A DNA stretch of 64,000 nucleotides from Gammaproteobacteria bacterium (GCA_030431775.1 JAUIHW010000001.1:70900-134899), one strand, 5' to 3'; shown: positions 989 through 32,134, counted from the stretch's first letter. Made by a program: numbers and translations. The notes: generated by a model not told the origin, from the letters alone.

Positions 989-1534
989 GCCTGCTGGTAC
1001 CTGGTGCCTGTCACTTTGAAGAGTATACCAGCGGCGTCTGAATAAGCGGCAACTGGGTCGACCAATGTAGTTCCAAACAGATTGAATCTTGGTCGGGAGA
1101 AGTCGGCGCTTCGACACCATTCGCGGAATGTCAGAACAGTTGCGTGTGCCGTAGCAATGCGGATCGGAAGAACAGGAAGTTCACCGTGACGTATGAGAAG
1201 CTACGAAAACGATGGAGGATGTGGCCCTCGGGAGTCTACCTGCAGGGGCCGGCTCCAAACCACCTTTAAGCGGCATTGGCTGAAGACCGTTGTCGTGAGC
1301 GTTAAAGGAAAAAGCGCATCCATGAGGTGCGTCAGGTACGAATCGAGAAGACGAGTACAAGCGAACCACCGTTTAGATCAGTGTGTCAGAGAAATCCCAC
1401 AAGAAAAGATTCAGCACTGTGGCTTGAGGCCATTCAGGGGGGCACTGAGCCATCCACACAAAGTGTCCGGTATTGCTTTAGCTGTAGTTGAAATGGACAA
1501 CAACACTAGCATTGCCATCGAGGTAAGTATTCTC

Positions 1535-15217: not shown

Positions 15218-15435
15218 AGCAAGGCCGCACGCTAAGCTTTTGGCGAAGTGCTCGAGATCAATAGTCCTGGCAAGCCGAGCACGCGATTTAGCACGCTATT
15301 GCAAGTTTTGTTGTCGTACTAAAACAAATATTCGTCATCAGTTATCAATATCTTAAGCGCCGTCCACTCTAAAGTAGCCTTAGGTTCGTGGCGTGGATGT
15401 CTCGCCGCGCAGACATTTTGAATCGGAGGCTTCCT

Positions 15436-17178: not shown

Positions 17179-17235
17179 CAGGTCGTCGATACGATCCGTC
17201 TTAATCGTTTCGGACATCCGTTGAGGTAGAACATT

Positions 17236-18594: not shown

Positions 18595-18612
18595 TTCCAA
18601 GGAGCCATAATA

Positions 18613-18903
18613 ATGATCAGGCAGATAACGGTTATTAAGTTCAAGCCAGAGGTTACTCCTAGCGATATTGACGCGGTGGGGGACGGCTTCGCAAAAATAT
18701 CTGATATTGTCGACGGTATCGCGCGCTTCGAGTACGGGCCCAACTTGCAGCTTATGAAAGGTACGTATGACTATGCGCTGGTAATCGACTTTGAGTCGGA
18801 AGCAGCATTGAAAAGCTACCAGGTTCATCCGCTTCACCTTGAGTTTGCAAAAAACTTTGTACCTCTAAGTGAACAGGCCGTTAGAGTGCACTACGCTGTA
18901 TAG
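18613..18903 (+). CDS. Dabb (stress-responsive alpha+beta barrel) family protein
   Basis: 96 aa with AGGAG upstream. It shows the canonical pattern ITVIKFKPEVT...FEYGPN...YALVIDFESEAALKSYQVHPLHLEF. Confidence 0.8.
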   Translation: MIRQITVIKFKPEVTPSDIDAVGDGFAKISDIVDGIARFEYGPNLQLMKGTYDYALVIDFESEAALKSYQVHPLHLEFAKNFVPLSEQAVRVHYAV

Positions 18904-18912
18904 CGGGAGCTG

Positions 18913-20007
18913 TTATGGGATTATTCTGCTACGGGCGACGGTATATAAGCCGATCGTTAGCAGCGGTATGATGTATATCAGCAGGTAAGCCCAGGCGAGA
19001 TTACCGTAACCCTGGGCCACCAGGGCGATGATGCCAAGCTTGCTAAGTAATAAGCCGGTAAGCAATGCCAATGCTGTTATAGCGGCATGCATTTTTCGTG
19101 ACAGTGTTTTTTGTCGAAGTTCCAGGCTCCATACGTCAAGGCGTTCTAAAAGTCCGTGTATCAGGCCCGCTACAGTCTGAATAATCATCCCAAACAGAAC
19201 GATGACGTACGCCACCATCAGCAATGAATTATCCAACTGACCAATCATCCAGTAAGTGGGTATCGCCTCATTGAGAACTTCTGGGTAGGCAGACATGAAA
19301 CAGAAATGGAAGATCAACGCTGGAAATGCGCCCATTATGCCGGCACAAAGGCCCGCACTGATGGCTTCGCCGCAACTATTAATGTCTCTGACGCAGTATA
19401 AAAGTATTGGAATGACCGCCGTATTGTACAGTGCGTATTGCAGGCCGCTTTTGAACCAATTGCCGTGGATTGGTTCAGTGCCAAATACCTGCCTGATGTT
19501 TTCCCCTCGTTCCACGAAAGAGATAACAAACAGCACCAGCAAGATGATCGTGAGGGCGATCATCCAAAAGGCCATTGACCTGGTCAGGAAATTCCGTCCG
19601 AAAAAACTGAGAGCGACCACCAGACCAAACAGTAAGCCGCCGCCTACGAATTCGGGTACGCCAAACTGATCTTGTATAATTGTTCCAGCAGCCGAACCGT
19701 TGACCGCGAGCACCAGTAGCAGGCCTGTTAGGAAAAGCAGCTCAAAGCCGATCCAGCCGCGGCCAATTAGCACTTTCATAAATCCTCGGTAGTCGTACGT
19801 CTGCGTGAATCTGGCCAGCTCGAAACTTAACGCGAGGACGAGCCCGAACCCGGCGGCAATCACTGCAAGTGCCAACAAACCACCAACCGGACCGTGCATG
19901 CTGACAAATTCTGCGATTTCACGGCCGGTGCCGTAAGCGCCACCAAATATCACCGATTGAAAAACCGCTGCCGGTATAAGAACTACCCTGAAGAATTTTG
20001 AGCCCAT
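18913..20007 (-). CDS. YkvI-like polytopic membrane protein (APC-superfamily-like putative transporter)
   Basis: It has about 11 TM segments. The N-terminal block AAVFQSVIFGGAYGTGREIAEF resembles the YkvI family signature (from memory). Confidence 0.65.
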   Translation of the reverse strand: MGSKFFRVVLIPAAVFQSVIFGGAYGTGREIAEFVSMHGPVGGLLALAVIAAGFGLVLALSFELARFTQTYDYRGFMKVLIGRGWIGFELLFLTGLLLVLAVNGSAAGTIIQDQFGVPEFVGGGLLFGLVVALSFFGRNFLTRSMAFWMIALTIILLVLFVISFVERGENIRQVFGTEPIHGNWFKSGLQYALYNTAVIPILLYCVRDINSCGEAISAGLCAGIMGAFPALIFHFCFMSAYPEVLNEAIPTYWMIGQLDNSLLMVAYVIVLFGMIIQTVAGLIHGLLERLDVWSLELRQKTLSRKMHAAITALALLTGLLLSKLGIIALVAQGYGNLAWAYLLIYIIPLLTIGLYTVARSRIIP

Positions 20008-20189
20008 AGTGGCCTACATTGTTTTTTTGATTCACTACCAAAGGCTTGGTGTTTTCCGAGACCTTAGCAGCGTTAGTTTTGATATTATTGTATTGAAGCG
20101 TCAGAAATTTGATTTTACGTGCCAAAAGAGCGGGTAGTAAAAGTAAGCGGGCAGCAGCCCAGGCATCATTTATTTGGAGTGTCTTTATT

Positions 20190-21188
20190 GTGAACTATCT
20201 GGTTCGCGCGCGAACATTACAGGGCTTCGAAGAGCTGGTTCTCTCACTTGGTGCAGATCCTGAAGCAGTCCTGGAGCGCGCCGGGCTTAATCCCGGTGTG
20301 TTAAGCCGGGCGGAGGACTGGATTCCGTTCAAGTCGGTATTGATCGCCTATGAAACCGCGGCGATGCTTACCGGTAGTGCTAACTTTGGCCTGCAGTTGT
20401 CCGGACAACGCGACTTGTCTTATCTTGGTCCAATCGGACTGATCTTCAAATACTCCAAAGATCTGCAAAGTGGTATGTATTCCATTATGAAATACATGAC
20501 AGTGCACAACACCGGTTACTATCCCAGCCTGGACAAAGCAGATGATGAGGTCAATTGGCGGCTGACCATACGCGGTTCATTACGAGCGTACGCAAATCAG
20601 TGGATGGAAGAATCGATGCTGACGACGCTGAACTGCCTGCGTATGTTTTTGGGTGAGGATTACGTGCCACGCGCGGTCGCGCTGCAACATAGCCCCAGCC
20701 CGAACGTAGACTATGACAGCTACTTTGGCGCGCCCCTGCAATTCTCTGCGGCATTCGATGGATTGATTCTTGAGCGCCAAGAGCTGAACGCACCCAACCC
20801 AATTGGTGATGGCGACCTTTATCAGTTCTTTGTTGGATACTTTGATTCGCGCGTACTGCGAGCCGAGGGTGATATACCCAGTGCCGTCGAGGCGCTGCTG
20901 AGAAGTCTAATCCCAACAGGCAAGTTCTCGGTAGACATAGTAGCCGACCAGCTTGGCCTGCACCGCCGCAAATTGCAGCGCCTACTAAATGACGCGGGGC
21001 TCACTTATGCAGAGATATTGGATCAATCGCGCAGGCAATTAGCCGCTGAATACCTGGCTACCAGCAACTTGCCAATGGTGAATTTGGCCTATCTGCTGGG
21101 TTACTCTGACCAAAGCGCTTTCAATCATGCGTTTCGGCGCTGGTATGGAGTAACGCCGCGGAAATGGAAAACACTTAAGCAGGCTTAG
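20190..21188 (+). CDS. AraC-family transcriptional regulator with AraC-type ligand-binding (Arabinose_bd-like) N-domain
   Basis: It has a C-terminal HTH pair (...LAYLLGYSDQSAFNHAFRRWYGVTPRKW). I placed the start at GTG 20190, 10 nt after GGAG. The track start 20109 adds a basic non-conserved leader. Confidence 0.8.
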   Translation: MNYLVRARTLQGFEELVLSLGADPEAVLERAGLNPGVLSRAEDWIPFKSVLIAYETAAMLTGSANFGLQLSGQRDLSYLGPIGLIFKYSKDLQSGMYSIMKYMTVHNTGYYPSLDKADDEVNWRLTIRGSLRAYANQWMEESMLTTLNCLRMFLGEDYVPRAVALQHSPSPNVDYDSYFGAPLQFSAAFDGLILERQELNAPNPIGDGDLYQFFVGYFDSRVLRAEGDIPSAVEALLRSLIPTGKFSVDIVADQLGLHRRKLQRLLNDAGLTYAEILDQSRRQLAAEYLATSNLPMVNLAYLLGYSDQSAFNHAFRRWYGVTPRKWKTLKQA

Positions 21189-21413
21189 TCCAGAGAGTTG
21201 TGTGTAAAAGGACTTGCTCTTACGTCACCTGAAATCAATATTTAGTCATCTATTCACAATTTCTGTAAAAAAACCGTCAGTAGTATTCAAGGTGATCCCA
21301 TTGGGCCAAGGTCCATGGGAACTGGCAGCTGCGCACTGGGAGATTTCACCGGATAATTGGTTCCGGTGGTCCCGCATATAGCACAAAACCAAACTATTGA
21401 CGGGGTATCAGAC

Positions 21414-23582
21414 ATGAAAAAGATGATTAGCAGACTATTCATTGCTTCGCTCGCCACTCAATCCTGGTTTGCCAATGCCCAGGGCAGCGGCATGCTGGAA
21501 GAGGTGGTGGTAACGGCGCAAAAACGGGAGCAGTCGGCGCAGGATACACCGGTTGCGGTAACTGTGCTGACCGGTGACGCGATGACGAAGTTGGGAGTGG
21601 AGAGCAGCAACGACATTGCCGATTACACTCCGGGCCTAAGCATATCCCCGGTCTTTGGTGCGGGCAATATTCCAAATATTGCCATAAGAGGCGTCGGTCT
21701 TAATGACTTTCGTGACTACCATGAAAGCCCATCAGCGGTTTATGTGGATGAGGTATACAAAGCGGCGCTGGCGAGCCTGGACTTTCAGTTGTTTGATGTG
21801 GAGCGGGCTGAAGTGTTGAAAGGTCCTCAAGGGACTTTGTTCGGTAGAAATGCCACTGGCGGGCTGATTCAGTACATAACCAACAAGCCCGGCGAAGAGC
21901 TGGAGGGTTTCGTGCGCTTGGGGGCCGGTTCTCTTGGTGAAACCAAAGCCGAGCTGGCCGTCGGTGGTCCGATTGCTGACGGGGTCGCCGGGCGAATTTC
22001 GGCCGTCTACCATAAGAACGACGGTATTCATAACAACGTTAACCCGGCTGGCGATGACGCTAACCAGACTGACCTGTCGGCTTTTCGAGGTCAGCTAAAA
22101 TTTGACCTCTCTGATGCGGCTACTTTGCTGTTATCTGTTGAGACGGCCAGCAATGATAACGATGGCGGTAACCCATACCGTTATGCCCCTTCATTCTTTG
22201 CGGCAGACAGTCTCGCAGTTATTGACGAAGCGAATCGAAATGTTGTGGTGGGCACGGATGACCGCAATGACATCAACGCAAGCGGTGGGCTGGCGCTCGA
22301 ATCGGACTACACAGCAGGTACCGCACGCCTGAATTGGAGTTTCGAAGCATTTGACCTTGTTTCCATCACCAATTTCCAGGATTTTGAGAAAGAGCATGTC
22401 CAGCAGGACTGTGACAGTACTCCGGATGATTTTTGCATAACAGAGTTTATTTCGGACACCAAGCAGTTCAGCCAGGAATTGCGCCTGCAGGGTGATCTGG
22501 ATGCCATTCAGTGGGATGTGGGGGTGTTCTACTTCGACTTGCAAACAGATGGAACACAAACCCTGACGGGACCAATTGCCGGAATATTTTTTGGCACAGA
22601 ATTCGGTACGACCCAGTTCGATACCGAAACCACCTCGTGGGCGGTATTTGGTCAGCTGGCCTATCACCTCACTGACGAGCTGACCTTGAGCGGAGGCCTG
22701 CGCTTCACCAACGATGAAAAGGATATGACCCAGAGCTTTCTGATCGGTGTGGTTCCTGGTGGTGTAGTGTATGACAGCAGCACGGTCGGACCACTGGCGA
22801 CCCAGGATGAAGACAACGTATCTTTTATGGCGAAGTTGTCCTGGGATGCTGGTGAAAACCTGATGGTGTATGGGGGTGTTTCCAAGGCATTCAAATCCGG
22901 CACTTTTAATACCGGTTTTGGTCCTGTCGACCCGAGTCAATACTCGGTAGAACCAGAGGAGCTAACCAGTTTTGAGCTGGGCTTCAAATCAACCCTGGGG
23001 GGCGGGCGTCACCGACTGAATGGCGCTGTGTTTTTCTACGACTACCAGGACCATCAAGCCTTCGTATATAGAGACTTAAATCAACTGCTGTTCAATGCCG
23101 ACGCCGAAGTATTCGGGGCCGAATTGGAATGGACCGGTTTGCCAACGGATTCGCTGGAAATCTCGGTAGGTATAGGCTATCTGGATTCCACTGTGAAAGA
23201 TGTCCAAGACCGCTCTGGTGCGATCCGCGATCGTGAGATGGTGCTTGCTCCTGAACTCAGTATCAATGTGCTGGCCAGGTACAGCTGGACGATCGCCGGT
23301 GGCAGTATTCTTGCCGCCCAACTCGATGGCAGTTACAGCTCTGATGTGTTTTACGACAACCTAAACCAGCCGGCGTTGAAGGAAGACGCCTACACCCAAA
23401 TTAACTCGCGCGTTTCCTGGTCAAGCGCCGATGATAGCTGGGAGCTGGCAGTATGGGGCAAAAATCTGGCCGATGAGGAATTTCGCATCTATGCCTTCGA
23501 CCTGACCGCAGACCTGGGTTATGTTCAAGAGGTTTACCACGCACCCAGAACTTTCGGAGTCAGCGTTGGTTATTATTTTTAA
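21414..23582 (+). CDS. TonB-dependent outer-membrane receptor
   Basis: It starts MKKMISRLFIASLATQSWFANAQG (signal). It has a plug domain (LEEVVVTAQKREQSAQDTPVAVTV...) and a C-terminal beta-barrel ending ...TFGVSVGYYF. Confidence 0.9.
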   Translation: MKKMISRLFIASLATQSWFANAQGSGMLEEVVVTAQKREQSAQDTPVAVTVLTGDAMTKLGVESSNDIADYTPGLSISPVFGAGNIPNIAIRGVGLNDFRDYHESPSAVYVDEVYKAALASLDFQLFDVERAEVLKGPQGTLFGRNATGGLIQYITNKPGEELEGFVRLGAGSLGETKAELAVGGPIADGVAGRISAVYHKNDGIHNNVNPAGDDANQTDLSAFRGQLKFDLSDAATLLLSVETASNDNDGGNPYRYAPSFFAADSLAVIDEANRNVVVGTDDRNDINASGGLALESDYTAGTARLNWSFEAFDLVSITNFQDFEKEHVQQDCDSTPDDFCITEFISDTKQFSQELRLQGDLDAIQWDVGVFYFDLQTDGTQTLTGPIAGIFFGTEFGTTQFDTETTSWAVFGQLAYHLTDELTLSGGLRFTNDEKDMTQSFLIGVVPGGVVYDSSTVGPLATQDEDNVSFMAKLSWDAGENLMVYGGVSKAFKSGTFNTGFGPVDPSQYSVEPEELTSFELGFKSTLGGGRHRLNGAVFFYDYQDHQAFVYRDLNQLLFNADAEVFGAELEWTGLPTDSLEISVGIGYLDSTVKDVQDRSGAIRDREMVLAPELSINVLARYSWTIAGGSILAAQLDGSYSSDVFYDNLNQPALKEDAYTQINSRVSWSSADDSWELAVWGKNLADEEFRIYAFDLTADLGYVQEVYHAPRTFGVSVGYYF

Positions 23583-23633
23583 TAACACGGTAGCGAGGCA
23601 GGTGGCTGCAGCTCGCTGGTCGCAAGAGAAGCC

Positions 23634-24851
23634 ATGAGTGTGGACTTTGCGCCGTATCAGGATGCGGCCACTACCGATCAGGCATTTAGTACTCACCTAG
23701 GTCGTGGCCCGGTAGACTACATGCATGCTTTGGGCACCGCCATTCATTACGGGCAGCGTCAAGGGGCAAGAGTACAAGATGCCTTTACCGGCAAGTGGTA
23801 TTGGGATTGCCATCGGAACGGTTCTCTCTACAACTTAGGCCATCGTAACCCGGCAATTGTTGCCACGCTGTCGCAGGCCCTGCAACAACTGGAGGTAGGC
23901 AACCTGTTCCTGGCTTCCGGTCAAAAGGCCTTTGCCGCTGAGCGGCTTGTTGACAGTAGTTCTGGGATGCTGCCAGGTGTTACTTTTGCGGCCAGCGGAG
24001 CTGAGGCCAGCGAGATTGCGATTCGCGCTGTTCGAGGATTTACGCGACGCAAGAATCTGGTTTCCTTGGAAGGCAGCTACCATGGGAGCACCTGCTTCGC
24101 AATGGCTGCCGGTGGAAACAAAGAGTTCAGGCAGCGTTATTTGCTGGATTTCGACGAAATTACTTTCGTTCCATACAATAATATGGCTGCCATGCGCGCG
24201 GCAGTCGATCAGGATACGGCTGCAGTATTATTGGAAGCATCGCCAGCGCAGTTGGGCTTTCCGGAACCAGATCCCGGGTACTTTCAAGCCGTTGCGGCAA
24301 TTTGCCGAAACGCCGGCGCACAACTGATTGTGGATGAGGTGCAAACTGGTCTGGGCGGCACCGGCAGTTTCTGGTTCTGGCAGCAGCAGGGAGTTGTGCC
24401 TGATGTGGTAACCATAGCCAAGGGCCTTGGCGGTGGGCTGCTAGCAAACGCAGCTGTGCTACTCGCGCCACCTATCAAGGAATGGTTCCACGACTCGCTC
24501 TACCCGCACAGCTCCACCTTTGCGGGGAATGAGCTGGCCTGTGTGATAACGAGCAAGGTCTGTGAGATGATTATGGCGGAGGGCTTTCTCGATCATGTGC
24601 GTGCGCTGGCCGAGCAATTCAAACAGGGCTTTTGTGGTGCGCCGTTCAAAGTTAATCAGAATGGTTTGTGCATGGGGCTGATCTCGAATGGTGAGGACAA
24701 CGTGACAATGACCCGTAAACTGTTTGAGGCCGGTGTGCTGGCCATACCGGCCAAATACGATAGCAGAGCCATAGAATTTCGCCCAATCTTGGTGCTAAGC
24801 CAGGAAGAGGCCAACCAGATTATCAGTATCGTTCGCGATACGCTTGGATAA
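23634..24851 (+). CDS. class-III aminotransferase (ornithine/acetylornithine/GABA-aminotransferase-like)
   Basis: It has FAASGAEASE, IVDEVQTGLGGTG and VTIAKGLGGG (PLP lysine). Confidence 0.85.
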   Translation: MSVDFAPYQDAATTDQAFSTHLGRGPVDYMHALGTAIHYGQRQGARVQDAFTGKWYWDCHRNGSLYNLGHRNPAIVATLSQALQQLEVGNLFLASGQKAFAAERLVDSSSGMLPGVTFAASGAEASEIAIRAVRGFTRRKNLVSLEGSYHGSTCFAMAAGGNKEFRQRYLLDFDEITFVPYNNMAAMRAAVDQDTAAVLLEASPAQLGFPEPDPGYFQAVAAICRNAGAQLIVDEVQTGLGGTGSFWFWQQQGVVPDVVTIAKGLGGGLLANAAVLLAPPIKEWFHDSLYPHSSTFAGNELACVITSKVCEMIMAEGFLDHVRALAEQFKQGFCGAPFKVNQNGLCMGLISNGEDNVTMTRKLFEAGVLAIPAKYDSRAIEFRPILVLSQEEANQIISIVRDTLG

Positions 24852-24863
24852 CTTATAAAGAGT

Positions 24864-26141
24864 ATGCCCATGATCCGATTGCTACCTAAGAACTCGCTCC
24901 TTCTGCTGGCTACGGCCAGCTTCGTCTGCAGTCTCGCCGCTTACGGCCAAAGCGACCCGGATGCGTTTGCCCGACTGAAAGCGCAGGGCTCCAAGGACGA
25001 AGCGACGATTCAGCTCAATCCCAAGGACCCCAGTTTCAATGTTTGGAAGCAGGTGCGCAAAGACTTATCGACTGGCAGAGAGCCAGGACTGATAAATGTA
25101 CAGCGCTTTGTTGGACACTATCCGTGGATCGGAATTCCGACTTTTTTTCATCTGCCAGTGGCTCTGACACCGGCCGATCTAAAGGCCGCAAAAGTTGAGG
25201 TGGCCATAATGGGTGCCGAACTGACTGGTGACCCGAGGGCAAGAAGCTGGGGTCCCGCTGAAATGCGAAATCCTCGTAGCTCGGAGGTCTATCACGTTTG
25301 GGGTGATTTCTCCATGCCCGAGCTGGATACGGGAGCGACAGCAATGAATGAGCTCGTGGTGGCTGACTATGGCGATGCGCCAAGTGAGCCGTTTAGCATC
25401 GAGCGCAGTATTCCCGAAATAAGACGAATGGTTCGTGAAATCGCCGAGACTGAAATTGCGGCGGGAAAAAGAACAATCCCGATTATTGTAGGTGGGCCAC
25501 ATGCACTGATGTACCCCGACGTGGCGGGCCTTGTGGATGTTTACGGAAAAGGCAATGTCGGAGTGATTCATTTCGATGCGCATGCAGACATGGCATCCAT
25601 TGGCTTTGGACATCTGGTCACGCATGGCAATCCGATCAGAGCATTGGTAAATGATGGCCTGGTTGATGGAGAGGATATCATCCAGGTTGGACTGAGAGGG
25701 CCCACGTCGACGGATCTGGCCACTGTGGAATGGGCACGCGAGCATGGCCTGCGTTACCACATGATGGCCGAAGTGGAAGCTCGCGGCTGGGATGCAGTCA
25801 TGGAAGACGTGCTGGAGGAAGCGATTCAGGGAGCGGACCACCTGTTCGTTTCTTTTGATTTGGATGTAGTCGATCCGGTCTTTATTCCGGGTACATCAAC
25901 ACCTGAGCCCGGTGGCTTATACATGCGAGAGGCCTTGCCACTGGTAAGACGTTTATGTGCTGAGGCGAATATTGTGGGTTTCGAGCTGGTAGAGCTACGC
26001 CCCGACTCAGACCCTGGCTACACCAGTGTACTTAATGCAAAAGCCATTTTGCGCCAGTGTCTGAACGGGTTGGCAATTCGTAAACGGGGGATTAGCGAAA
26101 AGGCTTACCTGCACCCGAAACTAAAAGATGATGGTCGTTAG
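24864..26141 (+). CDS. agmatinase/arginase-family ureohydrolase with N-terminal signal peptide
   Basis: It has Mn-ligand motifs GVIHFDAHADM, GGPH and FVSFDLDVVDP...PEPGG. The signal is LLLLATASFVCSLAAYGQ. The alternative start ATG 24870 has better SD spacing. Confidence 0.85.
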   Translation: MPMIRLLPKNSLLLLATASFVCSLAAYGQSDPDAFARLKAQGSKDEATIQLNPKDPSFNVWKQVRKDLSTGREPGLINVQRFVGHYPWIGIPTFFHLPVALTPADLKAAKVEVAIMGAELTGDPRARSWGPAEMRNPRSSEVYHVWGDFSMPELDTGATAMNELVVADYGDAPSEPFSIERSIPEIRRMVREIAETEIAAGKRTIPIIVGGPHALMYPDVAGLVDVYGKGNVGVIHFDAHADMASIGFGHLVTHGNPIRALVNDGLVDGEDIIQVGLRGPTSTDLATVEWAREHGLRYHMMAEVEARGWDAVMEDVLEEAIQGADHLFVSFDLDVVDPVFIPGTSTPEPGGLYMREALPLVRRLCAEANIVGFELVELRPDSDPGYTSVLNAKAILRQCLNGLAIRKRGISEKAYLHPKLKDDGR

Positions 26142-26152
26142 AGCGCTCTGAC

Positions 26153-26324
26153 GCTTACCCACTTATCACAGTTTAACCCGCTGGCACAGCAAGCTGTGCC
26201 AAATAGTCGCTGCGCTCTATGTCGTTTGTCCACGATCGATAGTCCACCGAGTCCCATGGCATATTAACCGCGACACGACCTGATTCCTGGCGGTAGAAGC
26301 TGTGCACATTGGGGTAGGACCAAA
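26153..26324. repeat. direct repeat, copy A (172 nt, 8 mismatches versus 29305..29476)
   Basis: I aligned the copies by eye, base by base, with no gaps. Homology ends abruptly on both sides. Confidence 0.95.
26173..26324 (-). pseudogene. displaced C-terminal 50-codon fragment of a BVMO gene
   Basis: The minus-strand translation is WSYPNVHSFYRQESGRVAVNMPWDSVDYRSWTNDIERSDYLAQLAVPAG*. It is in frame and has 4 aa differences from the C-terminus of the intact gene 29325..31244. No upstream coding continuation exists. Confidence 0.9.
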
Positions 26325-26599
26325 AAGTATAGAAACAGTAAACCTCTGTTGTCAGTAGATGGAGTTGCTGAAGAATATTCGATGTTGGCGGTGAAGGTGT
26401 TGAACTGCACTGAATATTGGGTCCAAATCAACATCAGGGGCTTACTTTACCCTTACTCTCCTATAATGCAACGCCAATAGCGTCATTCAATTGTTTGTCC
26501 CATCTGCGACAAGTGGGTAAACTCACAGATTAAACTAAGAATGCTGATCACACCAAGATCAAAAGAAGCCAATAATTAGAATAAATATAGGAGAATCAA

Positions 26600-26914
26600 T
26601 TGCTATACGTCACCGATGAGTTTCATATACCCGCTGCCAATATTGAGGAGGTTTTGGCACGCATAAACAATGTCTATTTTCCGCACGCCAGCGAGCGGGG
26701 TTATTCCCTGGAAAGCAAGCGCATCATGCCTGCTAGTGGTCAACAGGAAGACAGGATATTGTGGGTAACGTGGAGCCTGCCCGACATCATGAGCTTTTAT
26801 ATGAGCCGCGCAGGTCAATCACGAGTGACGATGGAGTTTTGGATGGGCTTGGAACCATTAATCACTAAACGCCACCGCCATATCACCGCCTCCGTAGAAG
26901 AAGCTTACTCATGA
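26600..26914 (+). CDS. hypothetical ~100-aa protein, predicted ferredoxin-like alpha+beta barrel (NIPSNAP/Dabb-like)
   Basis: The TTG start lies 6 nt after AGGAG. A beta-alpha-beta-beta-alpha-beta pattern can be read from the sequence (MLYVTDEFHI / IEEVLARINNVY / YSLESKRIM / ILWVTWSLPD / ...). The stop overlaps the next start as ATGA. The fold call is an inference. Confidence 0.55.
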   Translation: MLYVTDEFHIPAANIEEVLARINNVYFPHASERGYSLESKRIMPASGQQEDRILWVTWSLPDIMSFYMSRAGQSRVTMEFWMGLEPLITKRHRHITASVEEAYS

Positions 26915-27510
26915 GGACGACCACACAAATTTGGACGCAAGAAGGTGTCACACAAGAATCCATTCAAGCTGAAATTGCAGATAAACTAAGCGGCGCAGAT
27001 TTTCTCCATTTGGGACAAAATATTGAAGGCACTGTCGGCGGCGGTAATTTCACTCTAGATGCGGCGAACGCTGACCTAAACGCATTGCAATCTCTACAAG
27101 ACATCGCAGCCGTCACTGAAGCTGACACGGCTACCTATGAGTGGCTAGAAACCGGTGCTCGTGGAGACAATACAGATAACACTATCTGGAGAACCTTGCT
27201 GCTCACGGTGAAAGACGGAACCGATCAAAGAGCGGTAGAGCAGTTTGAACATGACTTGCTGCAAATGCCTACCCATATCCAAACCATCAACAAATGGGGG
27301 CTGGCGCGAGTAATCTCTGACAGCCGCTGGACGCACGTTTGGCAGCAAGAATACGCCGATATTACCGGGCTTGTTGGTGAGTACTTGTCGCACCCGTATC
27401 ACTGGGCTTGGGTAGACACCTACTTTGATATGGAAAACCCACGCCACATCGTTGAGCCAAGTATTGCGCACTGTTTCTGCCCACTCTCGGGCACCATCAT
27501 CAAGAGCTAG
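26911..27510 (+). CDS. two-domain Dabb-like (alpha+beta barrel) protein
   Basis: The C-terminal half IWRTLLLTVKDGTDQRAVEQFEHDLLQMPTHIQTINKWGLARV...WQQEYADITGLVGEYLSHPYHWAWVD matches the Dabb pattern, including the Y..HP.H motif. The N-terminal half has the same secondary-structure rhythm but is degenerate. Confidence 0.65.
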   Translation: MRTTTQIWTQEGVTQESIQAEIADKLSGADFLHLGQNIEGTVGGGNFTLDAANADLNALQSLQDIAAVTEADTATYEWLETGARGDNTDNTIWRTLLLTVKDGTDQRAVEQFEHDLLQMPTHIQTINKWGLARVISDSRWTHVWQQEYADITGLVGEYLSHPYHWAWVDTYFDMENPRHIVEPSIAHCFCPLSGTIIKS

Positions 27511-27526
27511 CGGTACGGAGTCACTA

Positions 27527-28570
27527 ATGACCAGTATGATTTACGGTGCCTACGGTTACACGGGCACATTAGCCGTTGAACTTGCGGTAGAAGCTGGCGA
27601 CAAGCCGATTCTTGCTGGCCGCAGTGCCGACAGGCTAAAGCCACTTGCCGACAAATACGGACTAGAAGCACGCGCTTTTTCGTTGGATGACAACGCCAGT
27701 GCCAAGCAAGCCTTAAATGATGTTGCTGCGGTGTTTAACGCAGCAGGCCCATACTCATCAACTGCAGCTGCAATGACGTCGTTGTGCATGCAAACCAACA
27801 CGCATTATGTGGACGTAACGGCCGAAAGCGATGTAATCCTTGCTATGCAGGCACAAGACAAGGCGGCCAAGGAGGCTGGTGTGATGATTCTTCCTGTGAT
27901 GGGTGCTGGTGGAGGCCCACCAGACTGTGCCGCGGCCAAGCTCAAGCAACTATTACCTGATGCCACCGAACTGGAATTTTTTGGCGGTTCACTACAAAGC
28001 GTTTCACGCGGCACCGCTAAAAGCGCCATGGAAACCATTCATGTAGAAACCAAGGTCAGACGCAACGGTGCGCTTGTCAGCCTCAAGAAGCCCTTATTCA
28101 AAACCATCAATATCAATGGCAACCCAAGAGAAAGCGTGACCATGCCGTTGTGCGAGCCAATCATTTGCTATTGGTCGACAAAAATTCCCAATATCACCAC
28201 CTATGTAGAAAACGCCGGCGCGGTTAAGCAGATGAGTTCTATTCCGGGATTTGTAAAGAAGCTGCTTGGCACTCGAATTGGGCAGAAGTTCATGCTCAAG
28301 CAAATTGAAAAAAACCCCGTTGGGCCTTCTGAGGAAGAGCGTGCCGCCGGAGTGTATGCCAATGTCGGTGTGGTTAGAAATGCCGCTGGTGACGAAGTTT
28401 CCATCATGGCGCATGGCCCTGAAGGCTATACAATCACTGCCCTATCTGCGTTAGAAGCCTTGCGACGAGCCAGCGGCGGCTCTTTCATACAGGGCTATCA
28501 AACGGCATCAACCGCGTATGGCCCAGAATTTTTTGAGAGCATTCCAGGCTGCCGTTTTGAGCAGCTATAA
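27527..28570 (+). CDS. saccharopine-dehydrogenase-like NAD(P)-binding reductase
   Basis: This is track ORF 27425..28570. I moved the start to ATG 27527, 6 nt after GGAG. The N-terminal Rossmann motif is MIYGAYGYTGTLAVELAVEAG..PILAGRS, followed by HYVDVTAE, typical of the Sacchrp_dh_NADP family. Confidence 0.8.
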   Translation: MTSMIYGAYGYTGTLAVELAVEAGDKPILAGRSADRLKPLADKYGLEARAFSLDDNASAKQALNDVAAVFNAAGPYSSTAAAMTSLCMQTNTHYVDVTAESDVILAMQAQDKAAKEAGVMILPVMGAGGGPPDCAAAKLKQLLPDATELEFFGGSLQSVSRGTAKSAMETIHVETKVRRNGALVSLKKPLFKTININGNPRESVTMPLCEPIICYWSTKIPNITTYVENAGAVKQMSSIPGFVKKLLGTRIGQKFMLKQIEKNPVGPSEEERAAGVYANVGVVRNAAGDEVSIMAHGPEGYTITALSALEALRRASGGSFIQGYQTASTAYGPEFFESIPGCRFEQL

Positions 28571-28605
28571 CCAGAAACGTGTTAACTAAGAGTTAACTAT
28601 TAACA

Positions 28606-28640
28606 GGACAGGACAGGACAGGACAGGACAGGACAGGACA
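28606..28640. repeat. pentanucleotide microsatellite (GGACA)x7
   Basis: There are seven perfect tandem GGACA units, read directly from the sequence. They lie between the convergent genes 27527..28570(+) and 28774..29031(-). Confidence 0.97.
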
Positions 28641-28672
28641 AACCCGATGGCTCCCAAGCAATCATCGGGTTT
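28640..28672. terminator. hairpin AAACCCGATG-N13-CATCGGGTTT, candidate bidirectional terminator
   Basis: It has perfect 10-bp arms (28640-28649 and 28663-28672) with a 13-nt loop. Each arm ends in TTT on its own strand. It sits between convergent genes. The U-tract is short, so confidence is moderate. Confidence 0.45.
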
Positions 28673-28773
28673 GTAACTACGTTTTTAATAGGTTGCTATC
28701 TCCGTTGTTAGCTCCTGAACGATGCGGCAGTAACTTCACCAGCGCCATTCATACTCTAATTCACCGTGCCTAT

Positions 28774-29031
28774 CTACTTACCTGAAGACTTATCGATGAT
28801 CGACATTAAATATTTTTCGCCTATAAGGGAAGTATCATGATCTAACTCGGCAAGCTTCATGCCATCGGTTTTTACTTGGTCCATTTTCGCAGACTGCTCT
28901 CTTTCTGCCAAAGCTGCTACAGCACAGCTTTGCAAGTCCTGCGATACAGAATCAGCATTCGCAATCATGGATTGAGTAGCTGCAACGGTGATTAACCCAC
29001 ACTTCAACAAGCTTTGAATTGATACTGACAC
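28774..29031 (-). CDS. small hypothetical secreted protein (85 aa)
   Basis: The GTG start lies 7 nt after AGGAG. The N-terminus MSVSIQSLLKCGLITVAATQSMIANA/DS looks like a signal peptide with an AxA cleavage site. The region is AT-rich and I recognise no family. Confidence 0.45.
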   Translation of the reverse strand: MSVSIQSLLKCGLITVAATQSMIANADSVSQDLQSCAVAALAEREQSAKMDQVKTDGMKLAELDHDTSLIGEKYLMSIIDKSSGK

Positions 29032-29304
29032 AGTAAAACTCCTGCGATTAGCATTTGAAAAATTTCTATCACCAACGCTCTACAAGTCGATGCATACGTT
29101 GGCGATGTAAATACGCTACTCCCGTTACACTCTGATGAGAAGTTGTTGAAATGCACCGAATACTGAGCCACGTGGTGTCGATATTTGCATTTAAAGATAA
29201 ACCACAACGCACTCGAAAGTGCAGAATAATTCAGTATGTTAGATCATTTTTAAGGGGGGTAATTGTCAGTGCAAATTCTGGGTCAAATTCGGTGCAATTC
29301 AATA

Positions 29305-29476
29305 GCTTACCCACTTATCGCAGATTAACCCGCTGGCACAGCAGGCTGTGTCAAATAGTCGCTGCGCTCTATGTCATTCGTCCACGCTCGATAGTCCACC
29401 GAGTCCCATGGCATATTAACCGCGACACGACCTGATTCCAGGCGGTAGAAGCTGTGCACATTGGGGTAGGACCAAA
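29305..29476. repeat. direct repeat, copy B (3' end of the intact BVMO gene plus 20 nt of 3' flank)
   Basis: It pairs with 26153..26324, with 164 of 172 positions identical by my count. Confidence 0.95.
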
Positions 29477-31244
29477 CGGTCTTGCTAAGGGCTTCGCTCA
29501 GCCGTTGTTCGTAAGCGTCTGCGGCTTCTTGTTTGCACTCCAGGCTGCGGAGCTTGTCTTCCACCATCCAGCGCACGGCCTGCATGATGTAACGTACCTG
29601 GCATTCGCCGATGTAAATACAGTTGGTGGTGTGAGCAACATTGGTGTTGGGTCCGTACAGGCAGAAGAAGTTTGGAAACTGTGGCACGCTGATGCCAAGA
29701 TGGGCTTTGGGGATATCCTGCCAAACCTGGGCGAGATGTGTGTTCCCACGGCCGATAATGTCCAGTGGCCAGACAAAGCGGTCGGTTTGGAAGCCGGTTG
29801 CCCAGACAATCACGTCAGCCTCGGCGGTTTCGCCATTGGCGGCCACTAAAGTGTTGCCGTCAATCTGGCTGACCCGGTCGGCAATCAGGCGCACGTTGTC
29901 CTGTTGCAGGGTGGCCAACCAGCTGCCGTTGTCCTGCAGGGTGCGAGTGCCCATGGGCGGGTAGTCGGGAATGACTTTCTCCAGCAGTTCCGGGTCGTGT
30001 ACCTGGCTGCTGATGTAGGCAACCAGCCATTCGCGCATCATTTTATTCTCCGGCCCGCAGGACAGTCCGTTATCGTCCCAGTCCGGGTCAACCAGAATGC
30101 GCGGGCTGGCCTTGTCGCACATCGGCCACATGCTCATAATGCGATACCAGCGGGCGTAGCCGGGTAGATTGTCCAGGCACCAGGTGTGTTCTTCGGAAAC
30201 CCGGCTGTGGTAGTTGGGGTTCGGAAACATCCATTGCGGTGTGCGCTGAAACACTGTCAGCTCGCCGGCCATTTTTGCCAGCGCCGGCACCATTTGAAAC
30301 GCGGTTGCTCCGGAGCCAACCACTGCAACCCGTTTGCCGTTGACATCAACATTGTCGTCCCACTGAGCCGAGTGCATCTGGTGGCCGTTGAATTCTGCAC
30401 GGCCTGGTACATCCGGAATATTGGGGCGGTTCAGTTGCCCGACGGCGCTGACCAGAATATTGGCAACCACTTGCTGGTTCTTGCCGTCTTTGTGGTAGTC
30501 CACGTGCCACCGGGCAGTGGCTTCATCGTAGCGCGCGCTGTGGGCTTCCGCCTCGAAAACAATTGAACCATCCAGGTCATGGTGTTCGGCAACCCGGGCA
30601 AAATAGTCGCGCAGTTCCTGGTGCTCGCCAAACTCATGCTGCCAGTTCTGGCCGTGTTCAAAGGAGTAGGAATAGGCGTAGCTGGCAATGTCCACCCGAC
30701 AGCCCGGGTAGCGGTTTTCGTACCAGGTGCCACCCACACCGGCGTTTTTCTCCAACACGGTCACGTGAATGCCAGCCTCCTGCAGACGCAGTGCCAGCAT
30801 CAGGCCGGACATACCCGCTCCCACAATCACCGCGCTCAAGTCAGTCTGGCGGGCTGCTTCCGGGTCAATGGGCACCCGCTTCGGGTCGCTGGCGTTGATG
30901 TCCAGTTCCTCGAGCATCATGGCGCGGTACTTGGGCGGGAACTCGTCCAGGCCAGCCACAAAGGCCAACATGCGGTGCAAGGTATCCTCAGCAAGGTCCA
31001 ATACGGGCGGTTTGCCAGACGCGAAATACTCTTTGATAAGCTGCTTTGCCTGCGCGCGCACCGTGGCGAGTTCGGCCTCGCCAAGCCCACCCTGCATTTC
31101 CAGCATTTCCGGTACATCGGGCTTGATTGGCCCGTCCAGCAGTGACGAATCACCCGTCATATGGATCATGGCCATCATCAGGGCAGGCGTGCTGGCATCT
31201 GCGAGTGCTTTATCCAGAAAGTCGTCATCGGGCAGTGTGGACAT
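29325..31244 (-). CDS. flavin-dependent Baeyer-Villiger-type monooxygenase with ~130-aa N-terminal extension
   Basis: It has VIVGAGMSGLMLA (FAD site), GGTWYENRYPG, FNGHQMHSAQW (BVMO fingerprint) and VAVVGSGATAFQ (NADPH site). Confidence 0.9.
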   Translation of the reverse strand: MSTLPDDDFLDKALADASTPALMMAMIHMTGDSSLLDGPIKPDVPEMLEMQGGLGEAELATVRAQAKQLIKEYFASGKPPVLDLAEDTLHRMLAFVAGLDEFPPKYRAMMLEELDINASDPKRVPIDPEAARQTDLSAVIVGAGMSGLMLALRLQEAGIHVTVLEKNAGVGGTWYENRYPGCRVDIASYAYSYSFEHGQNWQHEFGEHQELRDYFARVAEHHDLDGSIVFEAEAHSARYDEATARWHVDYHKDGKNQQVVANILVSAVGQLNRPNIPDVPGRAEFNGHQMHSAQWDDNVDVNGKRVAVVGSGATAFQMVPALAKMAGELTVFQRTPQWMFPNPNYHSRVSEEHTWCLDNLPGYARWYRIMSMWPMCDKASPRILVDPDWDDNGLSCGPENKMMREWLVAYISSQVHDPELLEKVIPDYPPMGTRTLQDNGSWLATLQQDNVRLIADRVSQIDGNTLVAANGETAEADVIVWATGFQTDRFVWPLDIIGRGNTHLAQVWQDIPKAHLGISVPQFPNFFCLYGPNTNVAHTTNCIYIGECQVRYIMQAVRWMVEDKLRSLECKQEAADAYEQRLSEALSKTVWSYPNVHSFYRLESGRVAVNMPWDSVDYRAWTNDIERSDYLTQPAVPAG

Positions 31245-31377: not shown

Positions 31378-31794
31378 TCAGGTGAACGGGTTGAGCAAGC
31401 GCACGCCCATCCCGTCAAAATCGCCGGTGTTACGAGTCACTAGCGTCAGATCGTTACTCAATGCGCTGGCCGCAATCTGCTTGTCAATCGCATTTTCGTA
31501 GCGTGGCACGCGCAAGCGGCCCCATAGCTGCGCATCGTCGCTGGTGAAATCTAAAATTCGGTCGGAATAGTCTTCCAGTAAGGCGCCCAGCCATTTTTCC
31601 AGTTGACTAGCCTGCGGGATATCTCCCCTATGCCTGATGAGCTCGATGCCGCGGCGTAACTCGCCAATTGTAATGACGCTCAGGTAGAGGAACGATTCCC
31701 TGGCTGACGCTTCTGTAAAGAAGGTTTGTACCCCGGCATTGGCTTTGTTGCGCTTGCGGCATTCACTGACAACATTGGTGTCAATCAAATACAT
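31378..31794 (-). CDS. vapC: type II toxin, PIN-domain ribonuclease of the VapC/FitB type
   Basis: MYLIDTNVVSE...SVITIGELRRG...IAASALSNDLTLVTRNTGDF...LLNPF parallels FitB/VapC, including the acidic PIN residues. The ATG at 31792-31794 overlaps the antitoxin stop by 14 nt. The track ORF extends to 31872. Confidence 0.85.
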   Translation of the reverse strand: MYLIDTNVVSECRKRNKANAGVQTFFTEASARESFLYLSVITIGELRRGIELIRHRGDIPQASQLEKWLGALLEDYSDRILDFTSDDAQLWGRLRVPRYENAIDKQIAASALSNDLTLVTRNTGDFDGMGVRLLNPFT

Positions 31795-32014
31795 TGGCAG
31801 CATCGCCAAGCTGCTTGCGCTCAAAATCTTCGTCTCTGCCAACCGCCGGTATGGCTTGCAGGACCTGAGCAAAGCTCTTCTTTTTCGGGCGTTTCAATGC
31901 CGCTTCCAATATTCTTCGGTGTTCCGCTTCAGCGCTGATACCGCGTTGCCCCGCGCGCGCTTTCAACGCTTTAACAATGTCGTCGTCAATATTGCGTACC
32001 ACTAGGTTTGCCAT
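31781..32014 (-). CDS. vapB: type II antitoxin, ribbon-helix-helix FitA/VapB type
   Basis: MANLVVRNIDDDIVKALKARAGQRGISAEAEHRRILEAAL is a typical FitA-like RHH N-terminus and is followed by an acidic tail. The gene lies immediately upstream of, and overlaps, the PIN toxin gene. Confidence 0.8.
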   Translation of the reverse strand: MANLVVRNIDDDIVKALKARAGQRGISAEAEHRRILEAALKRPKKKSFAQVLQAIPAVGRDEDFERKQLGDAANVFD

Positions 32015-32046
32015 TACCAATGTACCTCAGGGAGTATCAGCGAGAA

Positions 32047-32086
32047 TGATAGCAATGATTGCGCTTGGTTGCAATCATTGCTATCA
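32047..32086. promoter_or_regulatory. perfect 16-bp inverted repeat TGATAGCAATGATTGC-N8-GCAATCATTGCTATCA, candidate FitAB/VapBC autoregulatory operator
   Basis: I read it directly from the sequence. It lies 33-72 nt upstream of the antitoxin ATG, in the divergent intergenic region. The outer octamers TGATAGCA and TGCTATCA equal the half-site I remember for the Neisseria FitAB operator. Confidence 0.55.
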
Positions 32087-32134
32087 GTCACTGTGAGTTA
32101 TGATAGTGTGCCAAGGCAAAACATTGGAGTTCCC

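Follow-up and report, generated by a model that had tools for sequence, protein, structure and literature searches.

A cassette of four open reading frames (ORFs) lies just downstream of an intact gene for a Baeyer-Villiger/flavin monooxygenase (BVMO), enclosed by two imperfect direct copies of the 3′ end of that gene. Most probably the 172-nt repeat was left behind by one recombination event and does not represent an att site of an active mobile element. Our preferred account of that event, offered tentatively, is that the cassette was captured from a close relative by host homologous and illegitimate recombination. We refer to the whole stretch of DNA analysed, 64,000 nt in length, as ‘the window’, to the orphan repeat as copy A, and to the repeat that forms part of the BVMO gene as copy B. 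The features discussed are collected in Table 1.

Table 1. Features of the BVMO locus, in order of position (counted from the first nucleotide of the window)
Feature	Position	Strand	Details
Ureohydrolase module, 10.8 kb	15321–26141	+	Collinear with loci L123 and L008
Copy A, orphan BVMO 3′ end (pseudogene fragment)	26153–26324	-	About 49–50 codons, stop and 20-nt flank
Motif M1 in copy A, 22 nt	26153–26174	+	Outer end of copy A
Cassette between the copies, 2,980 bp	26325–29304		47.7% GC
Motif M2, 16 nt	26400–26415	+	TTGAANTGCACYGAAT; cassette non-coding DNA
M1, inverted third copy	26502–26523	-	20/22; about 25 nt upstream of predicted -35 for ORF104
ORF104, small protein, first operon gene	26600–26914	+	GGAG Shine-Dalgarno, TTG start; no Pfam match
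Dabb-domain protein, 199 aa	26911–27510	+	PF07876, E 1.4e-9
Saccharopine-dehydrogenase-like NAD(P) reductase (SDH), 350 aa	27518–28570	+	PF03435
Microsatellite, (GGACA)7.6	28603–28640		Sequence repeat
Terminator-like hairpin (28639–28673) and T-run	28639–28690	+	3′ of reductase gene; from folding
ORF85, small ORF	28774–29031	-	42.6% GC; BVMO's strand; AGGAG Shine-Dalgarno site
M2	29146–29161	+	Inverted repeat with 29287–29302
M2	29287–29302	-	4 nt from M1 of copy B
M1 in copy B, 22 nt	29304–29325	+	Abuts BVMO stop codon
Copy B, functional BVMO 3′ end	29305–29476	-	About 50 last codons, stop and 20-nt flank
Intact BVMO, 639 aa	29325–31244	-	End-to-end alignment with homologues

The two copies align without gaps and are identical at 164 of their 172 positions, the eight mismatches amounting to a divergence of 4.7%. 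At all four edges the homology breaks off sharply, and a repeat search of the whole window returned no other high-identity repeat of at least 30 nt. Copy A begins some 11–12 nt past the ureohydrolase stop codon and is the sole extra BVMO-like piece in the window. It retains the reading frame and the stop codon; upstream of it there are in-frame stops and no ORF of at least 50 aa, nor any that could be used. Judged from its sequence, copy A is an unexpressed orphan. The earlier note had described the repeat in just these terms (gapless, with eight mismatches, abrupt at every edge, copy B the end of the intact gene and copy A an in-frame orphan 12 nt past the ureohydrolase stop), and our analysis recovered the same coordinates and counts.

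The differences between the copies are few. Six are coding (four non-synonymous and two synonymous, tiny counts) and two lie in the flank. The ratio pN/pS between A and B is 0.57, compared with about 0.13 for the same gene region in relatives, and the differences would fit relaxed constraint on one copy. Only residue 602 can be polarised: the nearest homologues keep L602, and the Q found in copy A is derived. Seven of the eight mismatches fall in the gene-distal 83 nt (P = 0.07, not significant), and the gene-internal 36 nt are identical (P = 0.15, not significant). Clustering of this kind, together with an identical internal stretch, is also to be expected from site-specific crossover at the internal end, a point that counts against capture.

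At 47.7% GC, the cassette is the lowest of all the 2,980-nt stretches in the window (mean 53.4%, sd 2.8%), its genes ranging from 43 to 51% and its non-coding quarter averaging 41%. The compositional contrast proposed earlier is thus real, but far smaller than spot counts on single lines had suggested; the ureohydrolase gene, put at 65% GC from one such line, has 53.7% overall. Third-position GC (GC3) rises from 0.51 (cassette mean) to 0.56 in the ureohydrolase block, 0.65 in the ancestral neighbours and 0.71 in the BVMO gene.

The cassette comprises a three-gene operon (ORF104, Dabb and the SDH-like reductase) and the small ORF85. The Dabb start overlaps the ORF104 stop (ATGA), and the hairpin that follows the operon folds with a z-score of -2.75, matched by none of 200 shuffles. 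ORF85 belongs to no family found in Pfam, PHROGs or NCBIfam; its N-terminus looks like a putative signal peptide. All four ORFs, the microsatellite and the hairpin had been reported before, and all were found again. ORF104 is homologous to a 121-aa gene of contig L007 (E 1e-6) and a 122-aa gene of contig L125 (E 4e-7), both of which precede a Dabb gene, and the Dabb protein has homologues in the same two contigs (E 1e-26 to 1e-28). Because the trio is found together in three unrelated metagenomic contigs—in the order SDH-122aa-Dabb in L125 and L126, and BVMO-278aa-SDH-adh_short-121aa-Dabb in L007—we regard it as a metabolic unit. Its closest reductase relatives are just 54–59% identical. Linkage of the trio with a BVMO was seen only in distant contigs (L007). 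Elsewhere, SDH homologues also lie near homologues of DUF1214 and sulfotransferase genes, a set of the kind that would be expected beside a BVMO in a donor.

Signs of mobility were sought widely. None of the four cassette ORFs resembles a recombinase, integrase or transposase in Pfam, PHROGs or NCBIfam, which bears out the earlier statement that the insert carries neither integrase nor transposase. No large ORF of the 64 kb encodes a recombinase or transposase, and neither the cassette nor those ORFs include an excisionase or other mobile-element gene. The 64 kb contain no tRNA. The cassette shows no resemblance to plasmids or phages, its ORFs gave no match in PHROGs or NCBIfam, and the large ORFs of the window likewise bear no phage or plasmid signature. 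Nor did any collection searched contain the cassette a second time; the best protein relatives are those 54–59% identical. The cassette's genes form a conserved metabolic set, with none for mobility among them.

The BVMO gene has long resided at this locus, as its conserved linkage in three relatives shows: the order BVMO-sulfotransferase-APH-GST recurs in L004, L001 and L005, and the last of these also shares FMO and PQQ genes. Relatives carry one BVMO gene at the locus, the nearest being 61% identical. The ureohydrolase block is a separate module. It encodes a TPP enzyme, two aminotransferases, a 364-aa unknown protein, an AraC regulator, a TonB receptor and an arginase-family enzyme, and its edges are sharp, with unrelated flanks in all three genomes that have it. 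Synteny with L123 and L008, the nearest relatives with this block (87% and 77% amino-acid identity), stops at the ureohydrolase stop codon, and unrelated genes follow the block in both. Copy A is located exactly at the joint between this module and the cassette. Since it lies where the module ends, two compositionally distinct modules of lower GC3, the ureohydrolase block and the cassette, are stacked just downstream of the BVMO stop.

Two short motifs recur around the cassette. M1 marks the outer ends of both repeats and occurs a third time, inverted, ahead of ORF104; the four ORFs are therefore bracketed by inverted M1. The earlier note held that the insert had no terminal inverted repeat, which is not strictly so: the third copy pairs at 20 of 22 positions with the M1 of either repeat. 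Because M1 lies outside the four ORFs yet within the direct repeat, the inverted pair may be incidental or regulatory. No further M1 was found in the 64 kb or in 127 other loci, and viral contigs showed chance-level matches only, with no enrichment. M2 occurs three times, always in non-coding DNA of the cassette. To within 1 nt, the outer edge of M1, the edge of the repeat and the end of the ureohydrolase module fall together. This would not be expected of a random illegitimate event and also speaks against capture.

The reading that we tentatively prefer would run as follows. On the resident chromosome, a gap of about 31 nt would once have separated the end of the ureohydrolase block from the BVMO stop, and copy A would be that chromosome's original BVMO 3′ end. 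The donor would have been a closely related strain, about 95% identical in BVMO, with the cassette beside its own allele. On one side, donor DNA would have recombined homologously inside the BVMO gene; on the other, it would have been joined illegitimately at 26324/26325. The route could have been homology-facilitated illegitimate recombination (HFIR), or else a 3,152-bp fragment could have circularised and entered by a single, RecA-dependent crossover. The donor 3′ end (copy B) would thereby have been placed on the gene and the old end displaced, to drift since as a pseudogene (copy A). M1 and M2 would then most simply be operator-like sites common to the cassette's two promoter regions. A unique, well-defined repeat, the lack of any recombinase, tRNA, phage or plasmid trace, the conserved trio, the ancestral BVMO, the separate ureohydrolase module, the lowered GC3 of both modules and differences between the copies that fit relaxed constraint on one of them (pN/pS and residue 602) together lend this history a plausibility that falls a little short of even. 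It comes near the earlier suggestion that the insert was captured when the locus recombined homologously with a foreign allele. The two haplotypes it assumes are inferred, not observed, because no BVMO closer than 61% identity and no ureohydrolase block closer than 87% was found. Neither a donor-type nor a recipient-type haplotype was present in the genome and metagenome collections searched, in which the best cassette protein is 59% identical. Nor was there a sign of an empty site at which the ureohydrolase and BVMO genes converge; L123 and L008 are too distant to refute its existence.

HFIR is reportedly a process of naturally transformable bacteria, the description being ascribed to de Vries and Wackernagel in 2002; its illegitimate joint usually has a few nucleotides of microhomology to the donor. 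Capture by HFIR or by a single, Campbell-type crossover resembles our case in that the host's recombination acts at a single segment of homology and brings in the foreign DNA next to it, with no dedicated recombinase required and imperfect homology tolerated. During conjugation in Escherichia coli, for example, circular molecules that integrated by a single crossover left 109–950 bp of the homologous segment directly duplicated around the insert, without a site-specific recombinase (PMC3240628), a range that includes the 172-nt anchor duplication flanking the cassette. Those laboratory events differ in having known donors, whereas here the donor, the recipient haplotype and microhomology at the joint are unobserved.

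A different origin for the repeat, which we consider unlikely, is suggested by the cryptic prophage e14 of E. coli K-12. Like phage 21, e14 integrates in icd, according to the accounts in PMC6379469 and PMC13626634 of the work of Hill et al. 1989. The cassette might be the remnant of a comparable circular element that carried its own BVMO 3′ end and integrated site-specifically close to where the repeat ends inside the gene. The element's integrase would later have been deleted, or would act from elsewhere, and M1 and M2 may be leftover recombinase-binding sites. The architectures are alike: in both, the last 165–172 nt or so of a protein gene are present twice, the inner copy keeping the gene intact and an in-frame orphan lying at the far end, and in both the repeats are imperfect (12 mismatches in 165 nt, the length of the icdC pseudogene, for e14; 8 in 172 here). 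The identical internal 36 nt and the clustering of mismatches towards the 3′ end suit a crossover at the internal end; the short motifs repeated in both inner flanks and the low GC of the insert also favour an integrative element. Yet e14 is 15.2 kb long and has an integrase, an excisionase and phage genes, whereas the insert here is 3 kb of conserved metabolic genes with no recombinase, no second copy in any collection and an M1 that viral contigs do not favour. The substitutions also appear to differ. Gene-end copies of the att type are expected to differ mainly synonymously because both derive from functional genes, and those of e14 do (10 synonymous, 2 conservative non-synonymous); here the figures are 2 and 4, besides the two in the flank (one-sided Fisher P = 0.057, small counts). 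So of the earlier reading of the locus as an element's footprint, the structure stands (an insert beside a gene with a doubled 3′ end, the orphan outermost), but nothing found speaks positively for the mechanism. No recombinase, tRNA, phage or plasmid similarity or second copy backs the idea of a minimal or decayed island that is mobilised in trans; the cargo is a conserved metabolic trio, and the substitutions, though few, look unlike those of a genuine replacement 3′ end.

Copy A might instead have been copied from copy B on the same chromosome, the two being identical at first and diverging later. This is improbable in our estimation, though two routes can be envisaged: tandem duplication of 3,152 bp (26325–29476), followed by deletion or replacement of the first unit, or templated filler drawn from 3 kb away by template-switching repair when the ureohydrolase module joined the locus. 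No donor haplotype would be needed. The novel joint at 26324/26325 is exactly the one that such a duplication would leave, copy A occupies the very point where synteny of the ureohydrolase module breaks off, and a near-neutral pN/pS together with the derived residue 602 fits changes accruing in a dead copy. Against this, the first route takes two precise steps and the second a multi-switch event rarely documented in bacteria. A divergence of 4.7% implies that a useless fragment persisted for long, and neutral drift of copy A predicts an even spread of mismatches, not the uneven one seen (seven of eight in the distal half, not significant).

Mobile insertion cassettes and MITE-like elements have terminal inverted repeats and are mobilised in trans. 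The cassette shares with them passenger genes, without a transposase, between short inverted repeats, so that a non-autonomous transposon or site-specific cassette between inverted M1 copies (26502–29325), or a 371-bp MITE-like unit (26153–26523), might be envisaged; the recombinase would be encoded elsewhere, and M1 would be the site of module exchange downstream of BVMO. The inverted copies do surround the four ORFs, and the outer edge of M1 is where three boundaries of homology converge (those of the A/B repeat, of copy B against the third M1, and of the ureohydrolase module). We nevertheless think it very improbable. There is no target-site duplication at either candidate unit (flanks TTTGTCCC and TAACCCGC, or GCTCTGAC and CACAGATT), no matching transposase, and no other copy of M1 in the 64 kb or the 127 other loci; and one arm of the inverted repeat sits within the 172-nt direct repeat, abutting a stop codon.

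Decay in place of a full-length tandem BVMO paralogue, with ancestral intervening genes, which the earlier note had named as the history that would refute its reading, would explain why copy A keeps its frame and stop, and is highly improbable: relatives have a single BVMO, no other remnant lies between 14 and 29.3 kb (tblastn, word size 2, E up to 50), and homology is cut off at 26324 instead of fading, the frame upstream being unrelated and interrupted by stops. A chimeric join of two strain haplotypes during metagenome assembly is scarcely to be credited either. Database entries for the proteins come from one 263.9-kb contig only, but reads can be placed uniquely because the copies differ at eight positions, all genes at the joints are intact, and an assembler could pass from offset 172 of copy A to the cassette only if that BVMO-like sequence also stood ahead of the cassette in some real genome.

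As a very long shot, finally, a recombinase with its gene elsewhere in the genome might recognise M1, aided by M2 as an accessory site, and swap integrase-less modules in and out just downstream of the BVMO stop. Recombination at this one site would then have produced the repeat, the right-hand boundary of the ureohydrolase module and the third, inverted M1 alike, and the locus would represent a chromosomal cassette-exchange system with a logic like that of integron cassettes or Xer-dependent dif modules, acting at a new site.

The cassette is enclosed by the single long direct repeat that a search of the whole window returns. As the earlier note described, the two copies of this 172-nt repeat align without gaps and with 8 mismatches (repeat search of 24-33 kb and of the whole window), and alignment with 50-nt flanks shows homology ending abruptly at all four edges. 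Copy B consists of the final 50 codons, the stop codon and 20 nt of 3' flank of an intact gene for a flavin/Baeyer-Villiger monooxygenase (BVMO). Copy A retains the frame and the stop, and is an orphan fragment, because the frame upstream of it is unrelated and contains stops. Six of the mismatches affect codons and the other two the 3' flank; two of the six are synonymous, and four change the protein (L602Q, A620S, T632A and P634L, from B to A). The positions of these and other features are collected in the table.

Features of the repeat-bounded locus and its surroundings, in window coordinates
Feature	Position	Strand	Remark
Group II intron match	1214-1337	+	Rfam RF01999
Conserved segment 5' of TPP-enzyme gene	15321-15365		TTTTGTTGTCGTACTAAAACAAATATTCGTCATCAGTTATCAATA
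Ureohydrolase block	15321-26141		10.8 kb
Copy A	26153-26324		orphan
M1 in repeat A	26153-26174		
Palindrome in copy A	26182-26201		20 nt, TGGCACAGCAAGCTGTGCCA
Cassette	26325-29304		2,980 bp
M2	26400-26415	+	
M1, third copy	26502-26523		inverted, 20/22 match; just upstream of predicted ORF104 promoter
ORF104		+	first operon gene; no family match
Dabb-domain protein		+	199 aa; start overlaps ORF104 stop
Saccharopine-dehydrogenase-like NAD(P) reductase		+	350 aa; third operon gene
Microsatellite	28603-28640		(GGACA)7.6
ORF85		-	small, low-GC; signal-peptide-like N-terminus, read from sequence
M2	29146-29161	+	
M2	29287-29302	-	
M1 in repeat B	29304-29325		
Copy B	29305-29476		
BVMO	29325-31244	-	639 aa, intact; ORF and family match
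Palindrome counterpart in copy B	29334-29353		imperfect
vapBC-like pair	31378-32096		PIN domain and FitA-like RHH
Inverted repeat	32037-32096		26 nt
Gamma-glutamyltranspeptidase paralogues	48993-52510		583 and 612 aa

The insert contains the four ORFs, microsatellite and hairpin that had been noticed in it. ORF104, the Dabb gene and the reductase gene follow one another as a plus-strand operon, and then come the microsatellite and a terminator-like hairpin. The microsatellite, a perfect pentanucleotide repeat, adjoins this hairpin in the intergenic DNA that separates the reductase gene from the convergent ORF85, and the tract may be prone to slippage. PHROG and NCBIfam searches match none of the four insert proteins to a family, and the insert DNA has no match in plasmid and phage collections. 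The reductase has no relative closer than 54-59% identity, and a search with the SDH-like profile adds one locus among metagenome contigs and one among genome contigs. At the loci of these relatives the same genes occur together, so the cassette is a conserved metabolic gene set of unassigned function. Two contigs (L125 and L126) have the reductase, a 122-aa gene and a Dabb gene; on a third (L007) the order is BVMO (35% identical), a 278-aa gene, reductase, SDR, a 121-aa gene and Dabb. ORF104 is homologous to the 121-aa and 122-aa proteins, and the 199-aa protein to their Dabb partners. DUF1214 or sulfotransferase homologues are present at other reductase loci, and genes for BVMO, sulfotransferase or DUF1214 stand beside cassette relatives in one or two loci each. 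The set of reductase, 104-122-aa protein and Dabb protein is thus seen on three unrelated contigs, once beside a BVMO (L007, 3690-9567; L125, 8042-10244), often accompanied by SDRs, a glyoxalase and an esterase, and is a candidate for an uncharacterised pathway.

The insert had been judged AT-richer than its surroundings from spot counts on single lines. It is indeed the lowest in GC of all 2,980-nt stretches of the window (47.7% versus a window mean of 53.4%, ~2 sd below), but the contrast is far smaller than those counts implied; the ureohydrolase gene, put at 65% GC, has 53.7% over its whole length. The cassette genes range from 43 to 51% GC and the non-coding quarter of the cassette has 41%. 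GC3 is more informative than GC. Mean GC3 is 0.51 for the cassette genes, 0.56 for the ureohydrolase block and 0.65 for the ancestral neighbours (GST to DUF1214), and is 0.71 for BVMO; the cassette stands apart from the ancestral neighbours (P = 0.006) and is not distinguishable from the ureohydrolase block (P = 0.11). Within BVMO, a compositional step at the repeat edge was considered as well: GC3 is 0.62 in the last 50 codons and 0.71 in the remainder, and 6.6% of 50-codon windows are equally low, so that the drop is not decisive.

The nearest homologue of the BVMO is 61% identical. Three loci on other contigs (L001, L004 and L005) have a BVMO ~58% identical and share its long-range neighbourhood: in the orientation of the reversed window, BVMO, sulfotransferase (73%), APH (64-70%), GST (68-80%) and FMO/PQQ keep their order and orientation. 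By this shared gene order, BVMO is an old resident of the locus. What varies among the genomes is the segment directly downstream of it, which in the window consists of a DUF1214 gene, the ureohydrolase block, copy A and the cassette. Directly upstream of BVMO lies a vapBC-like toxin-antitoxin pair, with an inverted repeat in its promoter region; in relatives a DUF6116 gene takes its place. On the right flank, none of the 55 fetched loci is syntenic through the cyclase gene.

The ureohydrolase block encodes a TPP enzyme, two class-III aminotransferases, a 364-aa unknown protein, an AraC regulator, a TonB-dependent receptor and a secreted, signal-peptide-bearing arginase-family enzyme. It is collinear with two further fetched loci, L123 (507-11271; 87% amino-acid identity for the ureohydrolase, and 71-74% at the DNA level across the block) and L008 (558-11263; 77%). 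In both, the ureohydrolase stop codon marks one limit of synteny and a point near 15321 the other, and the genes beyond these edges are unrelated in all three genomes. By this comparison the catabolic block behaves as an independently assorting unit. Because its synteny in relatives ends at the ureohydrolase stop, copy A, which begins after a gap of 11 nt, lies at the very edge of such a module. The ~45 nt 5' of the TPP-enzyme gene are conserved in L123 and L008, and are probably an operator or promoter of the AraC-regulated module. No repeats common to the left edge of the block and the cassette region were found.

Both repeat copies have as their outer end a 22-nt motif, M1 (AGCTTACCCACTTATCGCAGAT), and a 16-nt motif, M2, recurs in the cassette. 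Neither is found elsewhere in the window, and none of the other 127 fetched loci contains M1. Three boundaries meet within 1 nt: the ureohydrolase module ends there, as do the A/B repeat and the similarity between copy B and the third M1 copy. M1 and M2 may be operators or sites of recombination. M1 is not a conserved 3' element of BVMO genes, being missing from the orthologue flanks in L001, L004 and L005; as a widespread or viral site it matches viral contigs at chance level; and, judged visually against the dif consensus of E. coli, it shows no convincing resemblance to a dif/Xer-like or attC-like site. The palindrome in copy A has a perfect 8-9 bp stem, 41 nt past the ureohydrolase stop; two of the eight A/B differences fall in its imperfect counterpart in copy B. 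As a terminator of the ureohydrolase operon this hairpin was rejected: it has no T-run, and its z-score of -1.5 is not significant against shuffled sequence.

Family searches of the four ORFs bear out that the insert holds no integrase or transposase. None of the large ORFs of the window encodes a recombinase or transposase, the window has no tRNA genes, and no known RNAs or tRNA targets were found near the insert. The search for an empty site met with no close BVMO relatives in GTDB genomes; an exact 44-mer of the repeat has no match, and no other record has an identical BVMO or ureohydrolase protein. Far from the cassette, a low-GC stretch (1-3 kb, 46.7% GC) contains a match to group II intron domains D1-D4, type 2 (81.8 bits, E 7e-15); downstream of it the plus strand shows no ORF large enough for a reverse transcriptase, so the intron may lack an ORF or be degraded. 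Two tandem gamma-glutamyltranspeptidase paralogues lie downstream of a TonB-dependent receptor.

The arrangement needs an event that placed the cassette and a BVMO 3' end beside the gene, and stranded the other 3' end at the ureohydrolase module. The reading we favour, tentatively, is capture by the host's own recombination. DNA from a closely related strain, in which the cassette adjoined that strain's BVMO allele, would have recombined homologously within the BVMO gene, and on the other side an illegitimate join would have formed at 26324/26325. By an alternative route, a circularised 3,152-bp fragment might have integrated by a single crossover. There is experimental precedent: in E. coli conjugation, single crossovers gave duplications of homologous segments of 109-950 bp around the inserted DNA (PMC3240628). 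Host capture explains why there is no recombinase, why the repeat is both long and imperfect and why its edges are abrupt; it also accounts for a cargo functionally suited to a place beside BVMO. It is established how the locus is built, that BVMO is ancestral there, that both neighbours are modules and that mobility genes are lacking; the donor haplotype, the recipient haplotype and the type of joint we infer.

A decayed integrative element, inserted site-specifically with a replacement 3' end as prophage e14 is in icd, is a less likely rival. The architecture fits, as does the identical internal stretch of the repeat; e14 carries intE and xisE, whereas the insert here has no recombinase. We built a benchmark from E. 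coli K-12, comparing icd with its e14-displaced pseudogene icdC. These share 165 nt with 12 mismatches, 10 of them synonymous and two conservative non-synonymous, as against two synonymous and four non-synonymous coding differences between our copies (one-sided Fisher P = 0.057). Between the copies pN/pS is 0.57, compared with ~0.13 for the same gene region in relatives, and at an omega of 0.1 the chance of at least four non-synonymous changes among six is 0.04. Three of the four changed residues are in the variable C-terminal tail, and at the conserved site L602 the derived state is carried by copy A. The substitution pattern and this derived residue speak, on small numbers, for constraint having relaxed on copy A and less for two alleles that both long stayed functional. 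Seven of the eight mismatches fall in the gene-distal 83 nt and the gene-internal 36 nt are identical (P = 0.07 and 0.15, not significant), a clustering that fits a crossover at the internal end and also fits a weaker constraint on the tail.

An origin within the genome, by duplication or templated insertion while the ureohydrolase module was being joined to the locus, we rate about as probable as the integrative element; in its favour are substitutions close to neutral in pattern and a copy A that lies where the module ends. Mobilisation in trans of an M1-bounded cassette is unlikely: the earlier note saw no terminal inverted repeat, and inverted M1 copies do exist (20/22), but neither M1-bounded unit has a target-site duplication. 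A decayed tandem BVMO paralogue is unlikely too, as permissive tblastn finds no second BVMO remnant in 14-29.3 kb, and so is misassembly. The M1 boundary coincidence leaves a slight chance of a new site-specific cassette-exchange system.

We judge the locus to be a genuine genome scar of a fairly ordinary sort, with one odd detail, the M1 boundary coincidence; were this a real recombination site, the locus would be considerably more interesting. It also teaches caution, for a duplicated gene end around an insert should be taken for an att site only when a recombinase, a second copy or an empty site goes with it, and the e14 benchmark (10 synonymous to 2 non-synonymous) offers a simple test for telling att sites from scars. 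An uncharacterised pathway is indicated by the conserved trio and by the homologues of BVMO, sulfotransferase and DUF1214 that accompany it on individual contigs. We have here a clean natural example of a metabolic operon added beside a resident gene whose working 3' end was kept, apparently without a dedicated recombinase, and this supports the view that ordinary homologous and illegitimate recombination, beside mobile elements, builds the gene clusters of environmental bacteria.
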